From Candidatus Saliniplasma sp. (lineage in GTDB: Archaea > Thermoplasmatota > Thermoplasmata > Halarchaeoplasmatales > Halarchaeoplasmataceae): DNA of 64,000 nucleotides. Below the pieces are notes generated by a model that searched no databases, was not told where the DNA came from, and saw only the letters and a program-made list of their open reading frames with translations. The position numbers and the translations under genes were made by a program. The stretch covers positions 3,040 through 67,039 of the forward strand of contig JAWOGF010000059.1 in assembly GCA_046497075.1 (NCBI GenBank), read 5' to 3'. Of the stretch, positions 323-59,776 are shown piece by piece (the stretch's first letter is position 1; every line of letters begins with the position of its first letter).

Positions 323-868
323 ATGTTGAAAGACATAGGGGAAATTCGAGCTGTTAGGAAGAGACTCGGATTGACTCAAACAGAACTAGCTGAAAGATCT
401 GGTGTTAGTCAATCACTGATCGCCAAGATCGAAAACGGAAATACTACGCCATCTTATGAAAAGGGAAGGAAGATATTGGACAAACTCGAAGAGATGATCG
501 AACAAAATTCTATGAATAAGAAAGTAAAAGAAGTACAATCAAAAGATATACTTTCACTGGAAAAAAACGATAAGGTGGAAACCGCTCTGCAGATCATGGA
601 GGAAAATGCTGTTTCACAACTACCCGTTATAGATGGTGGATTGTTGAAAGGAGGCGTAACTGAAAGTAGTCTATTGAAAAACTATGAGACAATAGATAGA
701 GACGTTCCCGTGGAAAAGATAATGGACCCTCCATTCCCACTTATAGATGAGAATGCAGGAATAGAAACTGTCAAAAAATTACTGATGGATCAACCCTGTG
801 TTTTAACATCAAGAGAAGGGCGGATAATAGGTATCGTTACAAAAGTGGATATCTTAGGTGAGATATGA
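323..868 (+). CDS. HTH (XRE-type) transcriptional regulator with C-terminal CBS domain pair
   Basis: The N-terminus LGLTQTELAERSGVSQSLIAKIENG is a typical XRE helix-turn-helix. The C-terminal half has CBS-like repeats (VSQLPVIDGG..., RIIGIVTKVDIL). The stop codon overlaps the start of the next gene in an ATGA arrangement. Confidence 0.7.
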   Translation: MLKDIGEIRAVRKRLGLTQTELAERSGVSQSLIAKIENGNTTPSYEKGRKILDKLEEMIEQNSMNKKVKEVQSKDILSLEKNDKVETALQIMEENAVSQLPVIDGGLLKGGVTESSLLKNYETIDRDVPVEKIMDPPFPLIDENAGIETVKKLLMDQPCVLTSREGRIIGIVTKVDILGEI

Positions 869-3800
869 TGGGTAGTAGAATGATGAGTTTTTTTGTTGTT
901 TTTGTTGTATTGTTGATTTTGGCTTCGCTGTTCAGCGTAGCGGCACCCACATCGGAAAAAGATTTTTCAGAAAAGTATTTTTTATTGCGGGACACCGGTG
1001 AGGAGATATCAGACCGATTGGATAGTTCAGATATGGATCTGATCGAAAGATACGATAACTTCGTACTGATAAGAGGGACTGAGAACGAATTAGAAACTAT
1101 CGATAAAGATGGATTAGACATAGACACTTTGCATAACCATACTAAAGTTTATGTGAAGGGGAAAACCCTGGATATATCTTCCAAAAGATCAGTATCTAGG
1201 TCAGAAAATACCCAGTTTTTGATACGTATGGTGGGCCCTGTAAGGTCTGAGTGGAGAAACGGTCTTGAATCTAAAGGTGTAGATATACTCAATTATGTAC
1301 CGAATTATGCATATCATGTGCGGATGGATCCAGCTCTTCTAAGGGAGCTCAACGAACTCGAATTTGTAGAATGGATAGGTGAGTATCGATCTGATTATAA
1401 GATCCAATCGGATATAGAAACAGGAACTGTCAGTATCGATATCATCCGAGATGAAAATACTATCTCTAAATTGAACAGTTTAATAAACATAAATGCTTCC
1501 AAAGATAGAGGAAGTCGTTCAGAGATATTGACTGAAATTAGAGATCCAGATATATTTGAAAGATTGGTCGAAATGGATGATGTGATATATATCCAGAATA
1601 TCAAAGAACCTTCCTTGACCAGCGAGATGGGATCACAGCTGTTAGGGGGCTTTTGGGATCCGGATGATCCTTCATCGGTTTACCGGGAAACCGGTGATTT
1701 CGGTGCTTATGTGAATCATCTCGGTTATACCGGTGAGGGACTTAACATAACGATCGCGGATACTGGGATAGGAGATGGGACCCAGGGAGATGCGGGTCAT
1801 GATGATTTTACAGGCAGGGTCATAGGAGGTACCGATTTTGGAGTCGAAGATGACTGGAGTGATGGATACGGGCACGGAACACATACCGCTGGTTTAGCTG
1901 CAGGGGATACACATAGCGGGACCGGTCTGCAGTACCAGGGACATGCTCCCTATTATCTATCACAGGGATTAGCATACGATTCGGGACTTTATGCGCAGAA
2001 ACTTTTCGATGATAAAGGAGACTGGTCAGTTCCTATCACAGTATCTTATTATGATATTATAGAGGATGCGAAGCAAAATGGAGATGTGTACATTCATTCA
2101 AATTCTTGGGGTGAAGAAGAGGGGGATGGGGCCTACAGCGATAGTGATTCAGATTATGATAGAGCGGTCAGAGATGCAGATCCGGAAATTACTGACAACC
2201 AGCCTATGGTTATCGTGGCTAGCGCGGGTAATGACGGTGAAAAAGGATATAGTACTATAGGCAGCCCAGGTAATGCTAAGAACGTTATCACCGTCGGGGC
2301 TACGGAATCATACATGCCAGATGCTCATCTATATGGTTCTTCCGGTAGTTCAGATGATCCATATTCGATCCCTTCATTCAGTTCTCAGGGATGGACGGAA
2401 GACAACCGTGTGAAACCCACAGTCGTAGCACCTGGTAGAGTTTCACTTTCCACTAGTACACCGATGTTAGGTGAAAGTAATCTGTGGGGACTATATAGTG
2501 AAGATCAAAGGTATGAATGGGGGTCAGGAACTTCTCAGTCAAACCCTAATGTTGCTGGAGCCGCGGCGGTGGTTTCACAATACTACGAGAATACTTATGG
2601 CCATCTACCCAGCCCTGCAATGGTAAAAGCGATATTGATCAATTCCGCTAGAGATCTAGAAACGGATCATTCAGGGGACGGGAAGATCGACCATATTCCA
2701 AATAGATACGAAGGATGGGGGCTGGTGGATCTAACGAATGTGTTAGGGTCAGATGTTCAATATGTCTCTAACGATCAAACATCTTTGCTAGAAACAGGCG
2801 ATGCCGATGGCTACTACCTGTATCCAGATAGAAACGATGAACCCATGAAGATAACACTCACATGGACCGATAAGCATGCCGAAGCCGAAGATAGTCCCAC
2901 CTTAAAAAACGACCTAAATCTAGAAGTTATCTCCCCCAGCGGTGAAAGATACAAGGGGAACGCATTCGATGAGGGATGGACAAGGGCCGATACTGATACA
3001 TCAACAGAATTCGATGATAACGGCGACGGATTCGATAACAGAAATGTTGTAGAAAACGTTTACATACATCCCGATGAGGTTGAGCGGGGATTTTACGAAG
3101 TGAGGGTCGAAGGTTATAATATCCCGGAGGATACTAACGGAGACGGGACGTCGAATCAGGATTATGCCTTGATGGCTCACAACGCTCTGAATGTAACCTC
3201 TAACGGGAGCGTTAACCTGGATCAGGATAAATACGCTTTGGAGGATACGGTGAACATAACTCTGATGGATTCAGACCTGATCGGGGAAGGGAGTACAGAG
3301 ATAGAGATGGTCAGCGATACGGACCCTGAAGGAAAATTCGTTGAATTGTTCGAAGGTGACATAGACGGCGTATTTACAGGGTCGATCCAGACCTCAGGAG
3401 AACAGAACGACGAAATATTACATGTTTCCCATGACGATCTGATAGAAGCTGTCTACCATGATGAGAATCCATCAGAGGAAAAAACGGCATCGGCTTACAT
3501 CGATGGTCTCCCTGCTGAGATCAGAGATGTAGAAGTTAAAGAAAAATTAGCCGCAGAGTTATCACTAAAAACAGATGAACCTGCTGTAATTTCTGTAAAT
3601 TACGGCATCGACGAGGAGATGGATATGAATTCTGAAACCGAAACCCTCACTGAAGATCATTCGATGATATTAGATAATTTAACACCTAACAGGTCATATT
3701 CTTTTAAAATAAATGTCACAGATGAAGTCGGGAACTGGAGGATCTATGACAATGAAGGAGAATACTATCATTTTAGATCTTCAAACATCGACGAAGTTGA

Positions 3801-5406
3801 AGAAGGTAATATCGGGTGGTCCCCTGATGATGGATGGAAAGTGGTCGACTCTGATTCATACTCTGGAGACCTTTCCTGGAATTTTGGTCAGGGAGATTAT
3901 GGTAGAGAGTTAAACGAGTCGTTGATTTCACCCCACATAGATACCAGCAGATGGCAGAATGTATCACTTTCGTGGTATCACAGATATGATCTTGAGCAGG
4001 GATACGATGGGGGTATAGTTGAGGTCAACGATGGTTCAGGTTGGGAAAAAATTACCCCTGAGGATGGTTACGATGAAGAATTGGATACGGGGTACAATAA
4101 TCCATTAGAAGGAGAACAGGCTTTCACTGGAAATCAAGATGAATGGGTTGAAGAGGTAGTCAATATTTCAAATCAGGAGGATCCTATACTTTTCCGATTC
4201 AGAGTAGGTACCGATACACATGACACAGATCATGAGGGATGGTGGATAGATGATGTCAGGATCGAGGGGGTTGTTACACCCACTGCCAATTTTACATATG
4301 TCCCTGAGAGACCAACATGTACCGATGACATCCAGTTCTACGATACCAGTTATGATCTAGATGGGGATGTAAATTATTCTTGGGATTTTGACGATGGGAA
4401 TCGTTCTTACGAAAAAGAACCGGTGAAAAGATATGATAGATTAGGTTCTTATGACGTTACTTTAACCGTTAGAGACGATAGTGGTATGGAGTCATCTGTT
4501 ACGAAAACTATCGAGGTCGTTAACATCCCACCCCGGCCGGATTTCACCTACGAACCTGCAGATCCAACGGCCAAAGATGATGTCGAATTTATCAGTGATT
4601 CTTACGATCCCGATGGAGATATAGTTGAATACCACTGGGACTTTGACGATGGGAACGTTTCAGATGGAGAGGTAGTGAACCACAGTTATTCCTTCAGCGG
4701 AAGCTACCTGGTGAGTCTGGTAGTTTGGGATGATAACGGTGAAGAAAATCAAACAACTAAAGAGGTTGAGATAGAAAATCTTCCACCTGAACCTTCATTC
4801 GATTATTCCCCTGCCAAAATATATACCGGTCATGAAGTCCAATTCGAAGAGGACAGCTTTGACTACGATGGGTGGATAAGTGAATGGTCATGGGATTTCG
4901 GAGATGGTGAGAGCTCTGACATTCTAGAACCTACCCACACATATGAGGAGGCAGGTGAATATGAGATCGCCCTGACCATTGAAGACAATAAGGGGACTAG
5001 GAACAGTACCCAAAGCATCATAAAAGTTGAAAGCTCAGATCCGATCGCTGATTTCTCTTTCGATCCAGAAAAACCCTTAGAAGGGGGGGAGGTCCGTTTC
5101 TCCGACAATAGTACGGAGAGACCTGATGAAATAGTTTCATGGTCTTGGGAATTTGATGATGGAGCTGTATCCGAAGAGCAGGATCCGACCCACGTATTTC
5201 AAGAACCAGGAGAATACATTGTTGAATTAACCGTTACAGATGAAAACGGGGATAGTAACACCACGACTAAAACTGTAGTAGTCGAGAAAAAACCTTTCCT
5301 TCAATGGTGGGGCTGGGTGTTGTTAGCGGGGGCCATATCATCAGGGATTATCATAGGATGGTTGTACATAAAATATTGGCACATAGATAAAGGGGATAAC
5401 TCATAG
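865..5406 (+). CDS. Large secreted or membrane-anchored subtilisin-like serine protease (peptidase S8) with four PKD-like repeats and a C-terminal transmembrane anchor
   Basis: There is an N-terminal signal or transmembrane segment. The subtilase catalytic motifs are present: Asp (ADTGIGDG), His (GHGTHTAG) and Ser (GTSQSNPNVAGAAA). A repeated WDFDDGN motif occurs four times, as in PKD domains (about nt 4260-5280). The protein ends with a hydrophobic helix, WGWVLLAGAISSGIIIGWLY. It is extremely acidic. Confidence 0.85.
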   Translation: MMGSRMMSFFVVFVVLLILASLFSVAAPTSEKDFSEKYFLLRDTGEEISDRLDSSDMDLIERYDNFVLIRGTENELETIDKDGLDIDTLHNHTKVYVKGKTLDISSKRSVSRSENTQFLIRMVGPVRSEWRNGLESKGVDILNYVPNYAYHVRMDPALLRELNELEFVEWIGEYRSDYKIQSDIETGTVSIDIIRDENTISKLNSLININASKDRGSRSEILTEIRDPDIFERLVEMDDVIYIQNIKEPSLTSEMGSQLLGGFWDPDDPSSVYRETGDFGAYVNHLGYTGEGLNITIADTGIGDGTQGDAGHDDFTGRVIGGTDFGVEDDWSDGYGHGTHTAGLAAGDTHSGTGLQYQGHAPYYLSQGLAYDSGLYAQKLFDDKGDWSVPITVSYYDIIEDAKQNGDVYIHSNSWGEEEGDGAYSDSDSDYDRAVRDADPEITDNQPMVIVASAGNDGEKGYSTIGSPGNAKNVITVGATESYMPDAHLYGSSGSSDDPYSIPSFSSQGWTEDNRVKPTVVAPGRVSLSTSTPMLGESNLWGLYSEDQRYEWGSGTSQSNPNVAGAAAVVSQYYENTYGHLPSPAMVKAILINSARDLETDHSGDGKIDHIPNRYEGWGLVDLTNVLGSDVQYVSNDQTSLLETGDADGYYLYPDRNDEPMKITLTWTDKHAEAEDSPTLKNDLNLEVISPSGERYKGNAFDEGWTRADTDTSTEFDDNGDGFDNRNVVENVYIHPDEVERGFYEVRVEGYNIPEDTNGDGTSNQDYALMAHNALNVTSNGSVNLDQDKYALEDTVNITLMDSDLIGEGSTEIEMVSDTDPEGKFVELFEGDIDGVFTGSIQTSGEQNDEILHVSHDDLIEAVYHDENPSEEKTASAYIDGLPAEIRDVEVKEKLAAELSLKTDEPAVISVNYGIDEEMDMNSETETLTEDHSMILDNLTPNRSYSFKINVTDEVGNWRIYDNEGEYYHFRSSNIDEVEEGNIGWSPDDGWKVVDSDSYSGDLSWNFGQGDYGRELNESLISPHIDTSRWQNVSLSWYHRYDLEQGYDGGIVEVNDGSGWEKITPEDGYDEELDTGYNNPLEGEQAFTGNQDEWVEEVVNISNQEDPILFRFRVGTDTHDTDHEGWWIDDVRIEGVVTPTANFTYVPERPTCTDDIQFYDTSYDLDGDVNYSWDFDDGNRSYEKEPVKRYDRLGSYDVTLTVRDDSGMESSVTKTIEVVNIPPRPDFTYEPADPTAKDDVEFISDSYDPDGDIVEYHWDFDDGNVSDGEVVNHSYSFSGSYLVSLVVWDDNGEENQTTKEVEIENLPPEPSFDYSPAKIYTGHEVQFEEDSFDYDGWISEWSWDFGDGESSDILEPTHTYEEAGEYEIALTIEDNKGTRNSTQSIIKVESSDPIADFSFDPEKPLEGGEVRFSDNSTERPDEIVSWSWEFDDGAVSEEQDPTHVFQEPGEYIVELTVTDENGDSNTTTKTVVVEKKPFLQWWGWVLLAGAISSGIIIGWLYIKYWHIDKGDNS

Positions 5407-21813: not shown

Positions 21814-22464
21814 ATGGCGAAATATACTGCTAAGATATTGGTCCTCGGGGACGGAGCCGTGGGTAAAACCTCTCTCGTTCGAAGATACATAAAGGGTGAA
21901 TTCGAGGAAGACTATATCGCTACCATCGGAGTGAATCTTAAACATAAAACATTAGATGATATCGGATTAGATATGTCTATATGGGACTTATATGGGCAGA
22001 AATCCATGTCTCCTGGTAAACATTCATCTAATTATATAGGAGCAGAAGGGGCTCTAATAGTGTTCGATTTAACGAGGAAAAAAACTTTGGAGAATATCAG
22101 ACAGTGGGTGGATGATCTATACGAGGTCATCGGAAAAGTACCCATCGTTTTCGCTGGTAATAAAAGAGATATCTTGATCGAGTTCCAGAAGAAAAAAAAT
22201 CTCAAATTAACAAAAAAGACAAAAGAAGAATTCCACGATTTCATGATCGATGAATATTATTATAAAAGTATATATAGTCAAGAACCAAAATTCGTTCCAG
22301 TTTCTTCTAGTGAAGTAAAAGGGATGTTCAAGAGTTTTAAAAAGACATATAACAAAAAGACTGCGTACTATCTTACCAGTGCTAAAACGGGAAAAAACGT
22401 TGAGGAAGCGTTCAAAAAATTAGGTGAATTTGTTATGGAAAACCAGATAAGGTATGAGGTGTGA
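21814..22464 (+). CDS. Ras/Rab-like small GTPase
   Basis: G1 is GDGAVGKT, switch I is YIATIGV, G3 is WDLYGQ, G4 is NKRD and G5 is SAK. An unusually long Lys-rich insertion of about 50 aa lies between G4 and G5. Confidence 0.7.
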   Translation: MAKYTAKILVLGDGAVGKTSLVRRYIKGEFEEDYIATIGVNLKHKTLDDIGLDMSIWDLYGQKSMSPGKHSSNYIGAEGALIVFDLTRKKTLENIRQWVDDLYEVIGKVPIVFAGNKRDILIEFQKKKNLKLTKKTKEEFHDFMIDEYYYKSIYSQEPKFVPVSSSEVKGMFKSFKKTYNKKTAYYLTSAKTGKNVEEAFKKLGEFVMENQIRYEV

Positions 22465-22527: not shown

Positions 22528-23682
22528 ATGAAAGTCCTATTGGTAGATGATGAGCGTAATATACTGAATCTATCTAAGACCTACTTAGAGGAGATATATG
22601 GCAATCTAACAGTTGAAACAACATCATCTGCCCGAAAGGCACTGCAGATACTGGAAGAGGATTTTTTCTCCGCTGTGGTTTCCGACTATCAGATGCCAGA
22701 AATGGATGGACTAGAATTTCTGGAAGAATTAAGGAACCGAGGGGACGATACACCTTTTATAATTTTTACAGGAAAAGGTCGTGAAGAAGTAGCTATGAGG
22801 GCGTTAAATCTGGGGGCGGACAGATATATCCAGAAAGGCGGCGATCCACGATCCCAATACGTGGTACTTGCCCAGGCTATTAAACAATCTGTAGAGCATA
22901 GGAATGCCCAGGAGGAATTACAACGCTCTGAAAAGGAAAAAACAGCTATATTGAATTCACTTTCTGAGATCGTCATCCACCAGGATGAAGACGGGCGTAT
23001 AATCTGGTCAAATAAGGCTTTTTTAGATACTTTAAAGAAAGGCCGGGAGGACTTGACAGGCGAATATTGTTTTGAAGTATGGTTCGGACGAGACGAGAGA
23101 TGTGAAGGTTGCCCGATAGTCAAAGCATTTGAGACCCATGAAAGGGAGGAGGCTATGATATATTCGGAAAATGAAGGTGTCTGGTATATCCGGGGGGAAC
23201 CGATAAAGGATACCCATGGGGAGATCATAGGTATGTTAGAGATCGCCGCGGATATGACGGAGAGAAGAAAAGCGAAGGAACAATTGAAAAAAATTGAGAA
23301 AAAATTCACTAAACTTGTGGAAAGTAGTTCTTCAGCTGTATTTATCCTCAAGAATACTGAAGTCGTATATCTAAATAGGGCGACGGAATTTATCACCGGT
23401 TTCAGTACTGACGAATTGAAATCTATGGACTTCATGGAGATGGTGAGTGATGACCAGGAAAAAGTTTTCCGAGAAAGGATCGAATCCATCCAGAACAAAA
23501 ACAAGGGCAGGACTCGATTCGAGTTGAAGATAACTGGCAAAGCCGGTGATGAGCGTTGGATCTATCTTACTATGACTTACCTTGAATACGAGGAGGAAGA
23601 TGCAGTTTTGTGTAGTGGCGTGGAGATTACAGATCAAAAATATTTGGAGGAAGCTCTCTCAAAAACCTCGAAGGAACAATGA
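22528..23682 (+). CDS. Response regulator receiver (REC) fused to PAS/PAC sensor domains, with no output domain
   Basis: The N-terminus MKVLLVDDE...SDYQMPEMDG is CheY-like, with the phospho-acceptor Asp context. Two PAS-like segments and a Cys cluster (CEGCP) follow. Confidence 0.7.
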   Translation: MKVLLVDDERNILNLSKTYLEEIYGNLTVETTSSARKALQILEEDFFSAVVSDYQMPEMDGLEFLEELRNRGDDTPFIIFTGKGREEVAMRALNLGADRYIQKGGDPRSQYVVLAQAIKQSVEHRNAQEELQRSEKEKTAILNSLSEIVIHQDEDGRIIWSNKAFLDTLKKGREDLTGEYCFEVWFGRDERCEGCPIVKAFETHEREEAMIYSENEGVWYIRGEPIKDTHGEIIGMLEIAADMTERRKAKEQLKKIEKKFTKLVESSSSAVFILKNTEVVYLNRATEFITGFSTDELKSMDFMEMVSDDQEKVFRERIESIQNKNKGRTRFELKITGKAGDERWIYLTMTYLEYEEEDAVLCSGVEITDQKYLEEALSKTSKEQ

Positions 23683-23690
23683 TCATGAGA

Positions 23691-26465
23691 TCATTTATGT
23701 CTCGTCCTTCTTTTCTTAATAGAGTACATATTGATCCCGATCCAGGTAAAGAACAATACAGCGATTATGATCACGAAAGGAAGGAATGAATATACATCTA
23801 TATATGTGCCAACCGTCATACTGATGGTCGCTCCACTATCCGGATCTACACGACCTTCGATGTAATATCTTCCTGTCTCATCTTCTTGGATGTCAAATCC
23901 CCTTCCGTTTGCCTCAGCATCCATCAATTCCATACCCTCCGGTACTTTGATAGTATAGTTCAGACCCCACTCTTGAATACTGCCCAATTCTAGCATGACC
24001 TGTTGATCGATGAGATACCTTCTTTGTATCTCAAAAGCAGTCTGTTCGTTCCCGTCAGATAAATCTTTCTCAAACGAAGCATTATAGAAGATATTCAAAG
24101 GCTGTCCAGAGTCCATAGCGTTAACCTCATATTCGCCTTCGATCCCTCTCACTATCAACCTTTCCTCTATGGTTTTCCCGGAAACGGATGTTAATCTATA
24201 ATTGATCTCATCTTCTTTCTCTGCCAAGAATCTATCTATCTCATCTTCGAAACCGTTATCATACAGTAGTTTCAAAAAATCAGCATTGATGTGTTTTATA
24301 TCCAGTGGTTCCGGTAAATCCCTTTCTAAGGCTCTAGGTACGGGTATTTCGTCGATCGTTCCGGAGAGTTCCGCATGGGCCGAGACATACTCTCTATCAA
24401 CATCTCTTTTCAGTTCGTAGATATCTAACAGTAAACTAACGTCCGGCTGCTTTTCTTTCAATTCTACAGGGTTTTCATGTCCTATCTCCAATCTATTTTC
24501 TTTACGAGGGGTCAACCCATCCGTGTTGTTCAATCCTAAAGAAATAGATGTTTCTCGTTCTTCCCCATCAATAAAGGCGAGATCGGGTGGAGCAGTGATA
24601 TTATAACTAGTTTTATGCCCCTCTTCACAATAGATAGGGAATTCCTGTTCTAACCTTCCTCCGATCTTTAATGTACTGTACAAAAGGCTTTCCAAATCAG
24701 CATTTTCTGGAACGTCATATCGAGTGGGGTAAAAATTGATGACGATGTACGAGGTTATCACTATCGGGCCTTCTTCTGTGTCTTCTAAACTGTCCTCATC
24801 GATCGAACTATTGTAGCTATACTCCCCTTCATAGCTTTCACCATCTAAACCAAATGATTCGTTTAATCTGCTCTCAACAAAAGAGTCTGTAAGCGAGGTC
24901 AGGTCCTCTTCTATAACTTCTTTTATTTCTTCATTGGAATGATATAACTGTCGGATTTCATCTGCACTTAGATCCTCCTCTTCTACCTCCGCTTGGTGGA
25001 TCTCAAATGTCGAATTCATATGATGTTGAGTGAGGTTTTTAAAAGTTAACTCATGGTTTTCTTCTACAATTAATGGATCTTCTATTCCACCGTTCTCAGC
25101 AGTGTGTGGAGGTGAGATCATCAAGATCAAAACGCATAATACTATCAATGGTATCGATACCCGGTAATAGAAATGTTTCTTTGAATCCTCTGTTTTTGGT
25201 TTTTTGGTCTTTTTTCTGAGTTTCTTCTTTTTCACTTTCTTTTTCTGTGGTTTCTTCTTTTTCACTTTCATTTTCTGTGGTTTCTTCTTTTTCACTTTCA
25301 TTTTCCTCTGAGCAAGGACCTGGATAGTATTTCCCAACAGATGAGGTTTTTTAACACCGTGAAGGATGCAAAAATCATACCTTTTTCGTCCCTTGGATGC
25401 TTTATGAAAAAGGATATTGACGTTCCCATAACCGAACCGCTTAGCTAAAAAGCCCTGCACCACGCCTATATCTTTAAACCTATACAGGGGATAGACTACA
25501 GAATTCTCTAGCTTATGAGTATTGAGCTTGACTATCCTCTCATTAGTGACAAGGTATCTCAGACCAGCATCTTTGTATAAAAGCATGGCGGTGACTAACC
25601 CATAGAATATCAAAAGGATGGAAAATCCAGATGTAATAAGATTATGGAAGTATTCTAATGGGATGATCTGAAATTGAGGGATCAAAAAGACCATCGATAC
25701 GAGAACCAAGGTTATACCCGATGCCTTGAACGGAGAAGAATCCAATTTAATAAGATCTCCCAGTCTTATGAAGATCCCTCCGATAAGAAGTAAGATAACG
25801 AAGTACATCAGTGTTTGAAGAGAGAATGGAAACCCTAGGAACGTTTCCCATAAAGTTCTTGGATATACACTTCTGACATAATTTTTCAATGAGATCATGA
25901 AAGATATTGAGACCGCTATGGTAAAAAAAGCGATCCATGTATGTTCTAAAAACTCTCTCCATCCCTTCGGTTCGAACATGTTCTTACTAAATAGATGAAT
26001 GATCGATAGGACTGCTATAAGAGGGATCAGCATGGGGTATATGGAAAAAATATCTCCTCTTATACCTTCAGCAGTTACTATCAGAGTAAAAATTCCAGTT
26101 AAAACAGATAATATCGCTGCCACAGCTATCTTGAAATAAAAAGCGGGATGAAGCTTTGTATCAGCCATAATCGTTTCTTTCTTCTTTAGATTTATCTTCA
26201 GCCCCAACTTAAGACTATCATCTGAAGATTGTCCCATCAAGCCTTCAAAAACCTTTTTTTGTTCGATGATGATCTTATTTAAAGCTGCCCCGATGATCAC
26301 GACGGGGACCAAAATCAAACCTATATAAACACTATACGTTAAAAGATCTGGAGATCTTATAAATCCAAACATCGTCAAAAGATTGATACCGGCGATGCTT
26401 AAAGATACTAGAACGGTAATTATTATGAGTATATAACTCCCGATATCATTCCCTTTCTTTGGCAA
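23691..26465 (-). CDS. Large multi-pass membrane protein with a bacterial PH-like (bPH_2/YdbT-like) domain, a poly-lysine tract and an acidic extracytoplasmic domain
   Basis: The N-terminal half has about 8 hydrophobic helices, then a PH-like segment (LVTNERIVKLN...YRFKDIGVVQGFLAKRFGYGNVNIL). Next comes the basic tract KKKKPQKMKVKKKKPQKKKVKKKKLRKK, encoded by 30-nt tandem DNA repeats. A further transmembrane helix, a roughly 450-aa acidic domain and a C-terminal transmembrane helix with a KKRRTRHK tail complete the protein. Confidence 0.5.
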   Translation of the reverse strand: MPKKGNDIGSYILIIITVLVSLSIAGINLLTMFGFIRSPDLLTYSVYIGLILVPVVIIGAALNKIIIEQKKVFEGLMGQSSDDSLKLGLKINLKKKETIMADTKLHPAFYFKIAVAAILSVLTGIFTLIVTAEGIRGDIFSIYPMLIPLIAVLSIIHLFSKNMFEPKGWREFLEHTWIAFFTIAVSISFMISLKNYVRSVYPRTLWETFLGFPFSLQTLMYFVILLLIGGIFIRLGDLIKLDSSPFKASGITLVLVSMVFLIPQFQIIPLEYFHNLITSGFSILLIFYGLVTAMLLYKDAGLRYLVTNERIVKLNTHKLENSVVYPLYRFKDIGVVQGFLAKRFGYGNVNILFHKASKGRKRYDFCILHGVKKPHLLGNTIQVLAQRKMKVKKKKPQKMKVKKKKPQKKKVKKKKLRKKTKKPKTEDSKKHFYYRVSIPLIVLCVLILMISPPHTAENGGIEDPLIVEENHELTFKNLTQHHMNSTFEIHQAEVEEEDLSADEIRQLYHSNEEIKEVIEEDLTSLTDSFVESRLNESFGLDGESYEGEYSYNSSIDEDSLEDTEEGPIVITSYIVINFYPTRYDVPENADLESLLYSTLKIGGRLEQEFPIYCEEGHKTSYNITAPPDLAFIDGEERETSISLGLNNTDGLTPRKENRLEIGHENPVELKEKQPDVSLLLDIYELKRDVDREYVSAHAELSGTIDEIPVPRALERDLPEPLDIKHINADFLKLLYDNGFEDEIDRFLAEKEDEINYRLTSVSGKTIEERLIVRGIEGEYEVNAMDSGQPLNIFYNASFEKDLSDGNEQTAFEIQRRYLIDQQVMLELGSIQEWGLNYTIKVPEGMELMDAEANGRGFDIQEDETGRYYIEGRVDPDSGATISMTVGTYIDVYSFLPFVIIIAVLFFTWIGINMYSIKKRRTRHK
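25215..25310. repeat. About three copies of a 30-nt in-frame tandem repeat (ttttctgtggtttcttctttttcactttca) encoding the poly-Lys tract
   Basis: The repeat is directly visible in the sequence at 25217-25310. Confidence 0.8.
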
Positions 26466-26492
26466 AAGATTACCTCATTGTTATTTTACCAT

Positions 26493-26840
26493 TCAAGTGG
26501 TGAGTTCGATGATAGCTTCTGCAGGTTTTCCATCGGTTTTCTCAAGTGCTTCTTTAGCTTCCTCCTTGGATACACCGGCTCTCTCGGAAACAAGTTTGAT
26601 GTCCTCTTCATCAATCAAGACTTTACCCTCTAAAGCCTCTTCTCTTGGAGAACCGACTATCTGATACATCTCTTGGCCTTTTACTTTCATACGCACGACT
26701 TCAGCACTATCAAAAACAAGTTTTTTATCACTCGTTTCAATGATCACCTTCTCGGCATCGATATCATTACTTTCCATGCCCATCTTCTTCATCATGCGCT
26801 TCATCTGTCTTGAGTTACCACCCGGCATCATAGCTATCAA
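26493..26840 (-). CDS. nac: Nascent polypeptide-associated complex protein (archaeal alpha-NAC)
   Basis: The N-terminus MMPGGNSRQMKRMMKKMGM matches the NAC family. The C-terminus carries a UBA-like EEAKEALEKTDGKPAEAIIEL. Confidence 0.8.
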   Translation of the reverse strand: MIAMMPGGNSRQMKRMMKKMGMESNDIDAEKVIIETSDKKLVFDSAEVVRMKVKGQEMYQIVGSPREEALEGKVLIDEEDIKLVSERAGVSKEEAKEALEKTDGKPAEAIIELTT

Positions 26841-27951: not shown

Positions 27952-28836
27952 ATGCAAAAGGCCAATAAACTTAGACAGGTCATCGTTTCCTTTCTATTCA
28001 TCATCATCTTAGTATCTATTACACAAGGCGCTGTTTCGGAAGCTTATTCTTCGTCTGATTTTGATGTAGACGTAGATTTAGAGGATGAAGTGAAGGTTTC
28101 GATATCTCACGATGACAATTTGTTGTACAGTATAGATTATAAAAATTTTATCATAACTACTGAAGATAGAACCTATGATATTCCACTTCACGAGTGTGAT
28201 TGGACGATAGATAAAAGAGAGATAAAAGATGAAGCCTTTCCCCACACAGATATACAACTGCAGACTGAATTAAGAGACGGAAATGATTTCATCGGTGATC
28301 TCAATTTCGATATCGATGTTTATTACAGTCGAGATGTTTCAGAAGTCACATTCTCTTTCACTCTAAGCGATATCGAACATCTCAGCGGTGGGATGATAGA
28401 TATCGTCAAGGATGTTAGTACGACTGGGTACATGATAGACGAACCTGAATTAGATAAGGAATACTACAAATTTTATTATCAGGACGGATCTACAGGATTA
28501 TACCGTTGGAACAATGAACTGGTTTTTAACGGCGAGTCCTCTGAATTAGATTTCTGGTCTGAAGATGAAAGGAGATTGATAATTCAAGGTGATTTCGGAT
28601 CCGATATAGATGAAGTATCAATGGAACCAGTTGAAATAGAAAAAACAAACGCTGGAGTAGCAGTTCCCGTTCCGGAACCTTACGACCATCTACCTTCATT
28701 CGTTATCGGACTTATGATCGGGGCTGGAATAATAGTGGGTATCTTGGCGGAAAAGAGAACTCAATTCTATAAAGAAAAGGATCCAGAAAAGGTCGTGAAA
28801 TTAGAGGATTCTTATTACTACAAAGGGAAGGATTAA
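27952..28836 (+). CDS. Secreted or C-terminally anchored acidic surface protein (hypothetical)
   Basis: It has an N-terminal signal peptide, an acidic body and a C-terminal hydrophobic helix (FVIGLMIGAGIIVGILA) followed by basic residues. Confidence 0.4.
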   Translation: MQKANKLRQVIVSFLFIIILVSITQGAVSEAYSSSDFDVDVDLEDEVKVSISHDDNLLYSIDYKNFIITTEDRTYDIPLHECDWTIDKREIKDEAFPHTDIQLQTELRDGNDFIGDLNFDIDVYYSRDVSEVTFSFTLSDIEHLSGGMIDIVKDVSTTGYMIDEPELDKEYYKFYYQDGSTGLYRWNNELVFNGESSELDFWSEDERRLIIQGDFGSDIDEVSMEPVEIEKTNAGVAVPVPEPYDHLPSFVIGLMIGAGIIVGILAEKRTQFYKEKDPEKVVKLEDSYYYKGKD

Positions 28837-58639: not shown

Positions 58640-59776
58640 TTAAAGGTCCGCCCCGCAACTTCTACATTTATCCGCATCGGGGTCATTCAACTCCTCACAG
58701 ATAGGACATATAAGTTTTTTCTCATCCGTTTCTTCCATTTCATCGCTTTCAAATTCATCCTCTTCTTCGCTGTCCTGTTCTTCCTCCTCAATTTCTTCTG
58801 GTTCCTCTTCCTCAGTTTCTTCTAGTTCTTCCTCCTCAGTTTCTTCTAGTTCTTCCTCCTCAGTTTCTTCTAGTTCCTCTTCCTCGGTTTCTTCTAGTTC
58901 CTCCTCCTCTGATTCCTCCTCCCATTCTTCCTCGGTTTCTTCTAGTTCCTCCTCCTCTTCTTTAATCTTCTCATCGGATCTTGGCATAACAGAATCTGTG
59001 ATAGTGACACTCTTCCCAGCTTCCAAGTCACCTGAATATTCTACACTACCTTCGACCTTGACGCCCTCCTCTAACCTAACATTACCTAGGACTGAAAGAT
59101 CACAAACTTGAGAATTTCTAGCGATATTTACATCTCCATCGCTTTCTATGTCTCCAGTAGAAACCTCTTCGGAGAGGCTTATATCCCTACCTGTTATCAT
59201 CCCTCCTATCTTGGACGATTTACCTATATTGATATTTCCGGTTTTAGAATCGATATCACCTTCCACTGTTGTATTTTTTCCGATCTCTATATCCCCCTCA
59301 GCTTCGATAGACCCATGGATCTTGACCGAGTCCTCAAATGATAAATTACCTTTCGATTTTATATCACCATTTATTACGGTATTGGACTTGAAGAACAAGT
59401 CTTCCCCTGACTCTACAGCAGGTTCCTCAAGGGCTCCGCTATATCCTTCCATTTCTTCCATCAATCTTTTATTTTCCTCGTCTAACTCCTGTACCTCTTT
59501 TCTGAGCTCTTCATTTTCTTCTTCGAGTTCAGCTAACAATGTTCTTTCCTCTTCACTAAAATGACCTAGATCTCCACTTTCGTCGAGTTTATAAAGTAAT
59601 TCTTGTATCCGCTGCTCCTTTTCTTCGATAGTCTCTCTTTTTTCATGGAGGAGTTTTCTTTTCTCTTTCTCTAATGAGTCTACTTGTTTGGTAAGTCTTT
59701 TTAACTCATTCTTTAGTTTAACTACCCTTTTTTTGTATTCTTCCATGCGCTTCCTTATCTGGTTTTTGCTGACCAT
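58640..59776 (-). CDS. Coiled-coil plus bactofilin-like beta-helix repeat protein with acidic repeats and a C-terminal zinc ribbon
   Basis: The N-terminal roughly 120 aa are heptad-rich (KLKNELKRLTKQVDSLEKEKRKL...). The central G-x-I/V repeat region (GDIKSKGNLSFEDSVKIHGSIEAEGDIEIGKNTTVEGDID...) resembles a bactofilin/DUF583 beta-helix. An EELEETEE tract repeated 5 times follows. The C-terminus has CPICEELNDPDADKCRSCGADL. Confidence 0.55.
   Translation of the reverse strand: MVSKNQIRKRMEEYKKRVVKLKNELKRLTKQVDSLEKEKRKLLHEKRETIEEKEQRIQELLYKLDESGDLGHFSEEERTLLAELEEENEELRKEVQELDEENKRLMEEMEGYSGALEEPAVESGEDLFFKSNTVINGDIKSKGNLSFEDSVKIHGSIEAEGDIEIGKNTTVEGDIDSKTGNINIGKSSKIGGMITGRDISLSEEVSTGDIESDGDVNIARNSQVCDLSVLGNVRLEEGVKVEGSVEYSGDLEAGKSVTITDSVMPRSDEKIKEEEEELEETEEEWEEESEEEELEETEEEELEETEEEELEETEEEELEETEEEEPEEIEEEEQDSEEEDEFESDEMEETDEKKLICPICEELNDPDADKCRSCGADL
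58795..58950. repeat. In-frame 24-nt tandem repeat (about 5 copies) encoding EELEETEE
   Basis: The unit ttcttctagttcttcctcctcagt is directly visible in the sequence. Confidence 0.8.

Follow-up and report, generated by a model that had tools for sequence, protein, structure and literature searches.

The window analysed here, a stretch of 64,000 nucleotides from a metagenome-assembled genome (MAG) of Candidatus Saliniplasma, a halophilic member of the Thermoplasmata, carries on its minus strand an open reading frame for a 924-aa polytopic membrane protein (23691–26465; TTG start, stop codon at 23691–23693). The product is 100% identical to a hypothetical protein of Ca. Saliniplasma sp. and has no paralog within the window. 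A GAGGT Shine-Dalgarno motif (26472–26476, minus strand), read directly from the sequence, lies 6 nt 5' of the TTG codon, and alignment places the start of the orthologs at the same position, both in agreement with the frame called by the initial annotation. The gene is real and is conserved over its full length in halo(alkali)philic Thermoplasmata including Ca. Saliniplasma: we found 20 full-length orthologs, the 19 genome loci all derive from halophilic Thermoplasmata MAGs, and identity is 35–59% across 19 full-length orthologs of the 924-aa protein. Pfam and NCBIfam scans of the query returned nothing significant and no family spanning the whole protein, in line with the earlier view that the architecture is undescribed.

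Upstream on the same strand is a gene for NAC alpha with NAC and UBA domains (26493–26840, minus strand; Pfam NAC, 1.4e-15). The Shine-Dalgarno motif sits within the 27-nt gap that follows the NAC stop codon, a search of this gap for a terminator-like site found none, and the two genes are probably co-transcribed. NAC lies directly upstream, on the same strand, in all ortholog loci whose upstream region is covered except L007, and also upstream of one distant, deeply diverged lineage with a standalone N-terminal module; the adjacency is absent at L023/L032 and L029. Genes for a response regulator (REC-PAS-PAS) and a Ras-like GTPase are convergent to the target. These opposite-strand genes had been singled out as its neighbours, and they do adjoin it in many loci (L001, L002, L004, L009, L011, L015, L020 and L021), but the pair is missing from several that keep the target (L003/L013, L008, L010, L012, L014, L017 and L022), and the conserved neighbour is NAC. 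Two distant loci have GT2 glycosyltransferase genes beside them.

Hydropathy and the AlphaFold model agree with the arrangement first proposed, giving ten transmembrane (TM) helices: eight N-terminal ones, TM9 at ~431–452 and TM10 at ~888–913. The distribution of K and R fits an N-in orientation with the PH domain and the polybasic linker inside and the ectodomain outside, and thereby upholds the cytoplasmic placement of both basic arm and PH domain. The AF2 model has a pTM of 0.48, and the inter-module contacts in it are unreliable. The polytopic membrane domain (residues 1–299; 25569–26465, minus strand) comprises the eight N-terminal helices, while some relatives of this module have six. 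Its most conserved motif, YPRxxWExFLGxPFSL, lies in the outer loop that connects TM5 with TM6. A transporter or enzyme fold was sought for the membrane domain, and only a generic helical bundle emerged. The C-terminal segment (residues 888–924; 23694–23804, minus strand; from hydropathy, alignment and the model) consists of TM10, a helix that opens with a conserved (L/I)PF motif, and of a short, basic tail on the cytoplasmic side, KKRRTRHK. This combination of (L/I)PF, TM helix and basic tail resembles a sorting signal and prompted us to consider an exosortase or archaeosortase for the membrane domain, which we rejected for want of an invariant Cys; a rhomboid-type protease was rejected because the order of the invariant Ser and His does not fit. 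Both rejections were made by reading alignments, and the lack of conservation of H157, E174 and H175 in distant relatives was likewise counted against protease and sortase readings. A rhodopsin reading of this module was also discarded; one source labels a relative of it 'bacteriorhodopsin'.

TM7 and TM8 (245–299) directly precede a PH domain (residues ~300–385, with a C-terminal helix to ~393; 25311–25568, minus strand), which the charge distribution places inside the cell. The initial annotation had read this segment as a PH domain of the bPH_2/YdbT type, and homologs and fold bear this out, but Pfam applied to the query itself does not (bPH_2, PF03703, no match at E≤1). Three of the 20 orthologs give a weak bPH_2 match (best E 0.0047), and five standalone homologs of the module, found by the family profile at E 1e-30 to 1e-39, score 22.9–38.6 bits against a gathering score of 22 bits. 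Since the query falls below Pfam detection and its standalone homologs pass the gathering score, membership in bPH_2 would hold only transitively, through these homologs and the predicted fold. The model shows a ~7-strand beta-sandwich capped by a C-terminal helix, as in PH domains, and NCBI names one family member 'PH domain-containing protein'; PDB sequence searches with a profile of the PH region gave no meaningful match. A cytoplasmic bacterial-type PH domain placed straight after a TM hairpin is also found in bPH_2 membrane proteins of the YdbS/YdbT and DdE/DdF type. YdbT, however, consists of three units, each of two TM helices and a PH domain, whereas here a single PH domain stands behind 6–8 TMs, the extra helices carry the conserved motif described above, a basic or disordered tail follows, and the whole is fused or coupled to a large surface protein. 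Moreover, the present protein is archaeal (Thermoplasmata) and has no bacteriocin or ABC transporter context. Solved bPH domains reportedly form ring-shaped homo-oligomers (Xu et al. 2010).

Between the PH domain and TM9 runs a linker that is polybasic by composition and disordered by pLDDT (residues 386–430; 25176–25310, minus strand; pLDDT <50 at residues 395–435 of the AlphaFold model). K and R make up ~62% of residues 389–430. The extremely basic tract noted earlier is indeed present: the densest 33-aa stretch holds 23 K/R, and no other of the 53 proteins in the window exceeds 14. Part of it is encoded by a 30-nt tandem repeat (25211–25305, minus strand; TRF: 3.2 copies, 95% match, score 162), which in register forms three units at 25212–25301, two of them perfect and one degenerate, that encode MKVKKKKPQK twice and then KKVKKKKLRK. 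The initial annotation was correct in counting three 30-nt repeats, the third being the degenerate copy, but its coordinates of 25215–25310 were ~5 nt off. It had also held such repeats to be labile, which the orthologs support: the linker is basic in 20 of 20 and varies from 25 to 60 aa in length, and at least six other ortholog loci have independent in-frame repeats, with units of 15, 24 and 27 nt, in the DNA that encodes the linker. The property conserved in the linker thus appears to be its charge and not its sequence or length. Replication slippage of short in-frame units is its probable mode of evolution and would explain the 30-nt repeat, and a charge-constrained linker seems to have been rebuilt in different lineages by independent in-frame tandem duplications. 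Such a basic linker stands out in a halophile with an otherwise acidic proteome.

We propose that the poly-Lys tract is the junction between two modules and serves as a disordered tether next to the membrane on its cytoplasmic side. Following the positive-inside rule, the tract most likely sets the N-in/C-out orientation of TM9, and it most likely lies along the anionic inner membrane surface. The charge of the arm (10–28 K/R) is far above the need of topology alone and hints at an additional role. The initial annotation had suggested that the arm may bind nucleic acid or acidic lipid; electrostatic binding of lipid, if it occurs, would be weakened in the salt-in cytoplasm of a halophile. A strongly basic set of tandem 10-residue repeats on the cytoplasmic side of a membrane anchor is reminiscent of the ribosome receptor p180/RRBP1, in which a TM anchor is followed by basic decapeptide tandem repeats. 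The likeness is one of analogy: the two share no sequence relationship, and p180 has dozens of repeats plus a coiled coil, compared with three repeats here.

Past TM9 (residues 431–452; 25110–25175, minus strand; from hydropathy) lies the extracellular ectodomain (residues 453–887; 23805–25109, minus strand). An acidic ectodomain had been predicted and is present, but it measures ~431 aa rather than ~450 aa and its acidity is not special. It contains 101 D+E and 34 K+R and has a pI of 4.18; the proteome of the window is acidic overall (D+E 18.4%, typical pI 4.4–5.2), and other proteins have pI values of 4.08–4.24. The acidity is therefore mostly a proteome-wide signature of halophily. The ectodomain is modelled as two-lobed and beta-rich, with an N-x-S/T sequon at N795 that every one of the 20 orthologs shares; 17/20 have another at position 699. 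The ectodomain matches no Pfam family, PDB sequence searches with its profile gave no meaningful match, and a word-indexed homolog search with the same profile returned two proteins only and added no depth. No conserved catalytic constellation was found in it. An internal duplication of the ectodomain was considered and rejected, the hhalign signal being weak (probability 16.6%).

The broader family shows that two membrane-protein modules are fused in the 924-aa protein, and that this fusion is specific to its lineage. The first is a polytopic protein that ends in the cytoplasmic bPH_2 domain and a disordered tail, basic in several relatives; the second is a type-I surface protein with a signal peptide or anchor, a ~430-aa ectodomain bearing sequons, and a C-terminal TM anchor. 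Among 1.84 billion proteins, a profile search recovered forms with the N-terminal module only (323–519 aa) and with the ecto module only (~490–580 aa, ~730 aa and >1100 aa), and elsewhere in the Thermoplasmata the modules are encoded by separate genes. Several standalone N-terminal modules have basic tails (e.g. P0041 and P0061), and the standalone ecto modules have N-terminal signal peptides and C-terminal anchors. In the fused protein TM9 would serve as an internal signal-anchor that replaces this signal peptide; small residues stand at –3/–1 after TM9 in many orthologs. At two verified distant loci the module genes are adjacent and overlap (P0052 with P0035 at L029, and P0120 with P0047 at L033), and P0106 and P0032, whose contigs are of equal length, probably form a third pair. 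In a close relative (L026/L027) two ORFs encode the protein; the break falls exactly at the poly-Lys linker, where stop and start codons overlap as ATGA. The adjacent overlapping genes and the split at the linker lead us to infer that the modules work as one complex. Standalone modules are non-adjacent at L023, L025, L028 and L030, and a metagenome locus scan with a narrower alignment retrieved two loci, both already known.

The nearest known fold to the ectodomain is that of Ost1/ribophorin I (RPN1), with marginal structural scores. Ost1/RPN1 is a non-catalytic subunit of the eukaryotic oligosaccharyltransferase (OST; Pfam PF04597). Like it, the ectodomain is two-lobed and beta-rich and is followed by a single C-terminal TM helix, and the standalone ecto modules share its type-I topology, with a signal peptide-like start and one C-terminal TM. 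Scans with Pfam Ribophorin_I at E≤1, however, gave no match, whether in the query, in the 20 orthologs or in a diverse set of 28 ecto-module proteins. Searches of PDB sequences with two profiles of the family did not retrieve Ost1/RPN1 either, and full-length profile-profile comparison with a shallow Ost1 profile (6 vertebrate sequences plus yeast) reached an hhalign probability of 1.8%. When the C-terminal halves were compared, again with the shallow profile, 157 columns aligned colinearly (P=0.0058; reversed control, P=0.13), among them GGW..Y, LPEG, D..GR and the TM helix; the N-terminal halves gave P=0.094. The membrane-proximal half shows a weak colinear motif match. Overall sequence and profile similarity is not significant, the present protein lacks the cytosolic four-helix bundle of Ost1, its ectodomain is attached to a polytopic PH-domain protein, and its lineage falls outside the eukaryotes, TACK and Asgard archaea in which Ost1 has so far been reported. 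Should the homology be true, OST accessory subunits would have a wider distribution.

These comparisons allow several readings of function. An unlikely one, although the least so among the alternatives, is that the protein is a translocon- or ribosome-associated accessory factor whose ectodomain is a true distant homolog of Ost1 and which works with the NAC of its own operon, holding nascent exported glycoproteins outside while the PH domain and poly-Lys repeats dock the ribosome or rRNA inside. NAC stands upstream in nearly all ortholog loci and in one diverged N-module lineage, GT2 genes occur at two distant loci, and the p180-like pairing of anchor and basic decapeptide repeats would suit such a role by analogy, as would the Ost1-like topology of the standalone ecto modules and the C-terminal-half match. 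Ost1 uses basic patches on its cytosolic domain to bind ribosomes (PMC11417166). Against this stand the absence of Ribophorin_I in all 48 family members scanned, the low full-length profile probability, the loci at which NAC is not adjacent, the reported range of Ost1, and the annotated genes of the loci examined, which contain no AglB/STT3 or SecY link, nor aglB or sec genes around the target. The wider proposal that the protein, or its two-gene cassette, is a hitherto unrecognised euryarchaeal counterpart of the eukaryotic translocon accessories, Ost1-like outside, with a ribosome-recruiting arm inside and NAC co-expressed, is somewhat more doubtful still; if it is true, a ribophorin-like element that docks ribosomes would exist in archaea other than the TACK and Asgard groups.

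The large extracellular domain, the cytoplasmic domains and the frequent proximity of the response regulator and Ras genes might also suggest that the protein is a receptor or adhesin at the cell surface and passes signals to the products of these two genes. We regard this as improbable: the genes are convergent to the target and so do not form one operon with it, the pair is missing from several loci that keep the target, and Pfam and NCBIfam scans detected no kinase, HAMP or other transmitter domain in the protein. An export device, such as has been proposed for bacterial bPH_2 membrane proteins like YdbS/YdbT, in which the membrane and PH module moves a peptide or other substrate and the ectodomain receives it, has equally poor prospects. 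The PH domain does follow a TM hairpin directly, and the bPH_2 proteins DdE and DdF are needed for export of the leaderless bacteriocin EntDD14 (PMC8657885). However, the helix count and single PH domain differ from YdbT, the conserved neighbours include no gene for a bacteriocin, an ABC transporter or another cargo, and no channel- or transporter-like fold was detected. Finally, chimerism or misassembly could have joined two genes into this ORF, or the 30-nt repeat could be an assembly error, given the relative with two ORFs split at the linker, the low-complexity, A-rich DNA of the repeat, and the single assembly available for the species (cluster size 1). Such an artefact is highly implausible, as different studies have yielded ~20 independent MAGs with the fused frame, the length of the repeat unit is divisible by 3 and leaves the frame intact, and analogous in-frame repeats occur in other lineages.

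We favour, at roughly even odds, a non-enzymatic, two-faced membrane scaffold in which the two modules work as one complex joined by a tether that hugs the lipid and fixes the topology; a role linked to the ribosome or translocon appears less likely. With no conserved catalytic constellation and a membrane part that is a generic helical bundle, the complex probably has no enzymatic activity. On the outer face, the ectodomain, a glycosylated, Ost1-like beta-sandwich with a membrane anchor at either end, could bind a protein or glycan ligand; on the inner face, the PH domain and basic arm might serve for oligomerisation or for attachment to the membrane. A purely structural scaffold leaves the conserved NAC neighbour unexplained, and likewise the GT2 genes at two distant loci. 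Both speak against it, as do the non-adjacent standalone modules at several loci, an arm charge beyond the need of topology, and the unreliable inter-module contacts of the AF2 model. Membrane proteins with bPH_2 domains are widespread and almost uncharacterised, and the fused and overlapping two-gene forms may name a partner for one archaeal branch of them, a conserved surface family that lies outside Pfam.

Our analysis demonstrates that the gene for the 924-aa membrane protein (23691..26465, minus strand) joins a bPH_2 membrane protein to a type-I surface protein, that this fusion is conserved and specific to its lineage, that the two entities are encoded by coupled genes elsewhere, and that they meet in a disordered, slippage-prone cytoplasmic tether whose charge is conserved. 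The resulting architecture is undescribed, its parts being bPH_2, a known family of unknown function, and an uncharacterised ectodomain family. Translation starts at a TTG codon at a position common to the orthologs, with a GAGGT motif 6 nt 5' of it, inside the 27-nt gap behind the preceding gene's stop. The same layout emerges from hydropathy analysis and from an AlphaFold2 model (mean pLDDT 75): eight N-terminal transmembrane (TM) helices, a helix-capped, beta-rich domain (residues 302-393), disorder over residues 395-435, TM9, a well predicted ectodomain (467-889), and TM10 with a short basic tail at the C-terminal end. Lysine and arginine are concentrated in loops predicted to face the cytoplasm, in the segment of PH domain and linker (43 K/R vs 6 D/E) and in the C-terminal tail, while the ectodomain contains 34 K/R vs 102 D/E. 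The ORF, membrane layout, poly-Lys tract and repeat described in the initial annotation were confirmed, with small coordinate corrections only.

When 1.84 billion representative proteins were searched with a profile, 241 matched, and scoring with sub-profiles separated these into proteins with the membrane and PH module only (323-519 aa), proteins with the ectodomain module only (about 490-580 aa), and larger proteins that repeat parts of the ectodomain (about 730 aa and >1100 aa). The ectodomain-only proteins are type-I membrane proteins, with a signal-peptide-like N-terminus and a C-terminal TM helix followed by basic residues. Several standalone N-terminal modules end in basic tails and others in long low-complexity tails. 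At two distant loci the module genes are adjacent and overlap, P0052 being followed by P0035 (7 nt, L029) and P0120 by P0047 (35 nt, L033); P0106/P0032 is a probable third pair, since the contigs of these two proteins are equally long, and at other loci the modules are non-adjacent. A relative in the halophilic group has two ORFs in place of one gene, of 417/400 aa and 511 aa; the break falls precisely at the poly-Lys tract (L026 4120-4360, identical in L027), where stop and start overlap as ATGA beside an A5 run. A genuine split whose halves are translationally coupled, a frameshift error and slippage of the ribosome are the possible causes; the L026 and L027 assemblies are identical at the split and possibly stem from the same underlying reads.

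A hypothetical protein from a Candidatus Saliniplasma sp. MAG matches the 924-aa protein at 100% identity, and the 19 further full-length relatives (35-59% identity) all belong to MAGs of Thermoplasmata or Thermoplasmatota. Scanning GTDB with a single genome per species placed the gene at 19 loci, all in Thermoplasmata MAGs, and those hosts that are named, Ca. Saliniplasma, Ca. Haladaptatiplasma and Ca. Halarchaeoplasma, are halo(alkali)philic. Organism names on members of the two-module family are likewise Thermoplasmata throughout.

Conservation is highest in the membrane and PH part. A Pfam scan of the 924-aa protein itself gave no bPH_2 match, and weak matches were obtained for 3 of 20 orthologs. 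Standalone N-terminal relatives, which the family profile retrieves with E values from 1e-30 to 1e-39, score 22.9-38.6 bits against the bPH_2 cut-off of 22, and NCBI labels one of them 'PH domain-containing protein'. The model displays a PH fold, for which Foldseek returned PH and PTB domains and the bacterial PH structure 3dcx; the eight-helix part resembles generic four-helix bundles only. One standalone relative, the IMG record P0151, is named 'bacteriorhodopsin' by one source, which looks like a misannotation, given that there is no conserved Lys and no rhodopsin fold match.

In all 20 orthologs the PH domain is connected to TM9 by a basic linker, which ranges from 25 to 60 residues and from 10 to 28 K+R. 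Tandem Repeats Finder reported a 30-nt period at 25211-25305 (3.2 copies, 95% matches); in register, two of the copies are perfect and a third is degenerate, and they encode MKVKKKKPQK, MKVKKKKPQK and KKVKKKKLRK. The densest 33-residue window of this tract holds 23 K/R, compared to 14 for the best elsewhere among the 53 proteins of the window. The 30-nt repeat is restricted to this genome, and at least six further ortholog loci carry in-frame tandem repeats of their own where the linker is encoded, with units of 15, 24 or 27 nt, such as the 15-nt unit (x 6.2) encoding TPIKK-like units in L003/L013. Charge and disorder are thus conserved, and sequence and length are not; slippage appears to remodel the tract time and again. 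Long tandem repeats also occur 5' of the gene pair formed with the nascent-polypeptide-associated complex (NAC) gene, at L022 878-1239 (81 nt x 4.5 copies) and L003 4319-4553 (= L013 1391-1625; 126 nt x 1.9 copies).

The ectodomain modelled alone is confidently predicted (pLDDT 83.5, pTM 0.69), and neither Pfam nor the PDB sequences gave a match, which a broad family profile did not change. We compared it to a small alignment of Ost1 that included human RPN1 (verified against PDB 6s7o) and yeast Ost1. The full-length profile-profile comparison was negative (probability 1.8%). The membrane-proximal halves gave a colinear 157-column alignment (P=0.0058) pairing GGW..Y, LPEG, D..GR and the TM helix, with P=0.13 for the reversed control and P=0.09-0.3 for the other pairings. 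The ectodomain may be a true homolog of Ost1; published searches found Ost1 in eukaryotes, TACK and Asgard archaea only (PMC11417166). N-x-S/T sequons at N795 (20/20 orthologs) and position 699 (17/20) fit with a predicted extracellular, glycosylated ectodomain. Its acidity, pointed out in the initial annotation, is mainly a halophile signature: with pI 4.18 and D+E 23.5%, the ectodomain is near the top of the range in an already acidic proteome (D+E 18.4%), in which other proteins reach pI 4.08-4.24. A 1513-aa secreted-type subtilase with four PKD domains (865-5406, plus strand) has a pI of 4.08, which shows that surface proteins of such acidity are common here. A 378-aa protein (58640-59776, minus strand) contains 34% Asp+Glu, a FapA and bactofilin-type beta-solenoid match and a C-terminal zinc ribbon.

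The response regulator and small GTPase genes do lie next to the fusion gene on the opposite strand, as initially annotated, but they are convergent with it and missing at several orthologous loci. Compared with the Pfam model, the Ras/Roc/Arf-type GTPase (21814-22464, plus strand) has an insertion; the regulator behind it (22528-23682, plus strand) consists of REC and two PAS domains without an output domain, and the pair is kept together in many related loci. Except at L007, every ortholog locus whose upstream sequence is available encodes NAC immediately 5' of the gene and in the same orientation; NAC also precedes the split relative and a ~23%-identical standalone N-terminal module with otherwise different flanks. 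NAC is absent at L023/L032 and L029. Convergent family-2 glycosyltransferase (GT2) genes follow the two-gene cassette at two distant metagenomic loci (L033 3189-4668, L034 1981-2643).

We propose that the two-module complex acts as a non-enzymatic, two-faced scaffold, in which the linker tether probably lies along the anionic inner membrane face and fixes the orientation of TM9. Residues after TM9 resemble signal-peptidase sites in many orthologs (e.g. VSA-Q, VYA-Q, ISA-D, VAA-D), so the precursor might be cut behind TM9 into two subunits; the candidate site in the 924-aa protein, HTA-E, is atypical. bPH_2 proteins have a known role in peptide export (PMC8657885). Together with the Ost1-like ectodomain fold, the putative NAC operon and the GT2 neighbours, all of them weak leads, this suggests a ribosome- or translocon-associated role, which we consider improbable. 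The ribosome receptor p180 combines a TM anchor with basic decapeptide repeats, and this likeness is a further weak lead to the same role. The main value of the finding lies in the proposed functional link between both modules, along with the possible Ost1 relationship.

Two MAGs contain two diverged copies of the gene, either real paralogs after rearrangement or mixed bins. In B1Sed10_191R1, L007 has the regulator and GTPase downstream and no NAC within 3 kb upstream, and L022 lies between NAC (upstream) and LysRS (downstream). In binchicken_co32_338, L008 has NAC and LysRS, and L006 has the regulator downstream, its upstream sequence being too short to judge NAC. A 294-aa acidic type-I membrane protein without a Pfam match (27952-28836, plus strand; pI 4.24) belongs to a block, HypB - 294-aa ORF - PRPP synthetase - NAC - fusion gene, that is kept in several related loci (36-63% identity).
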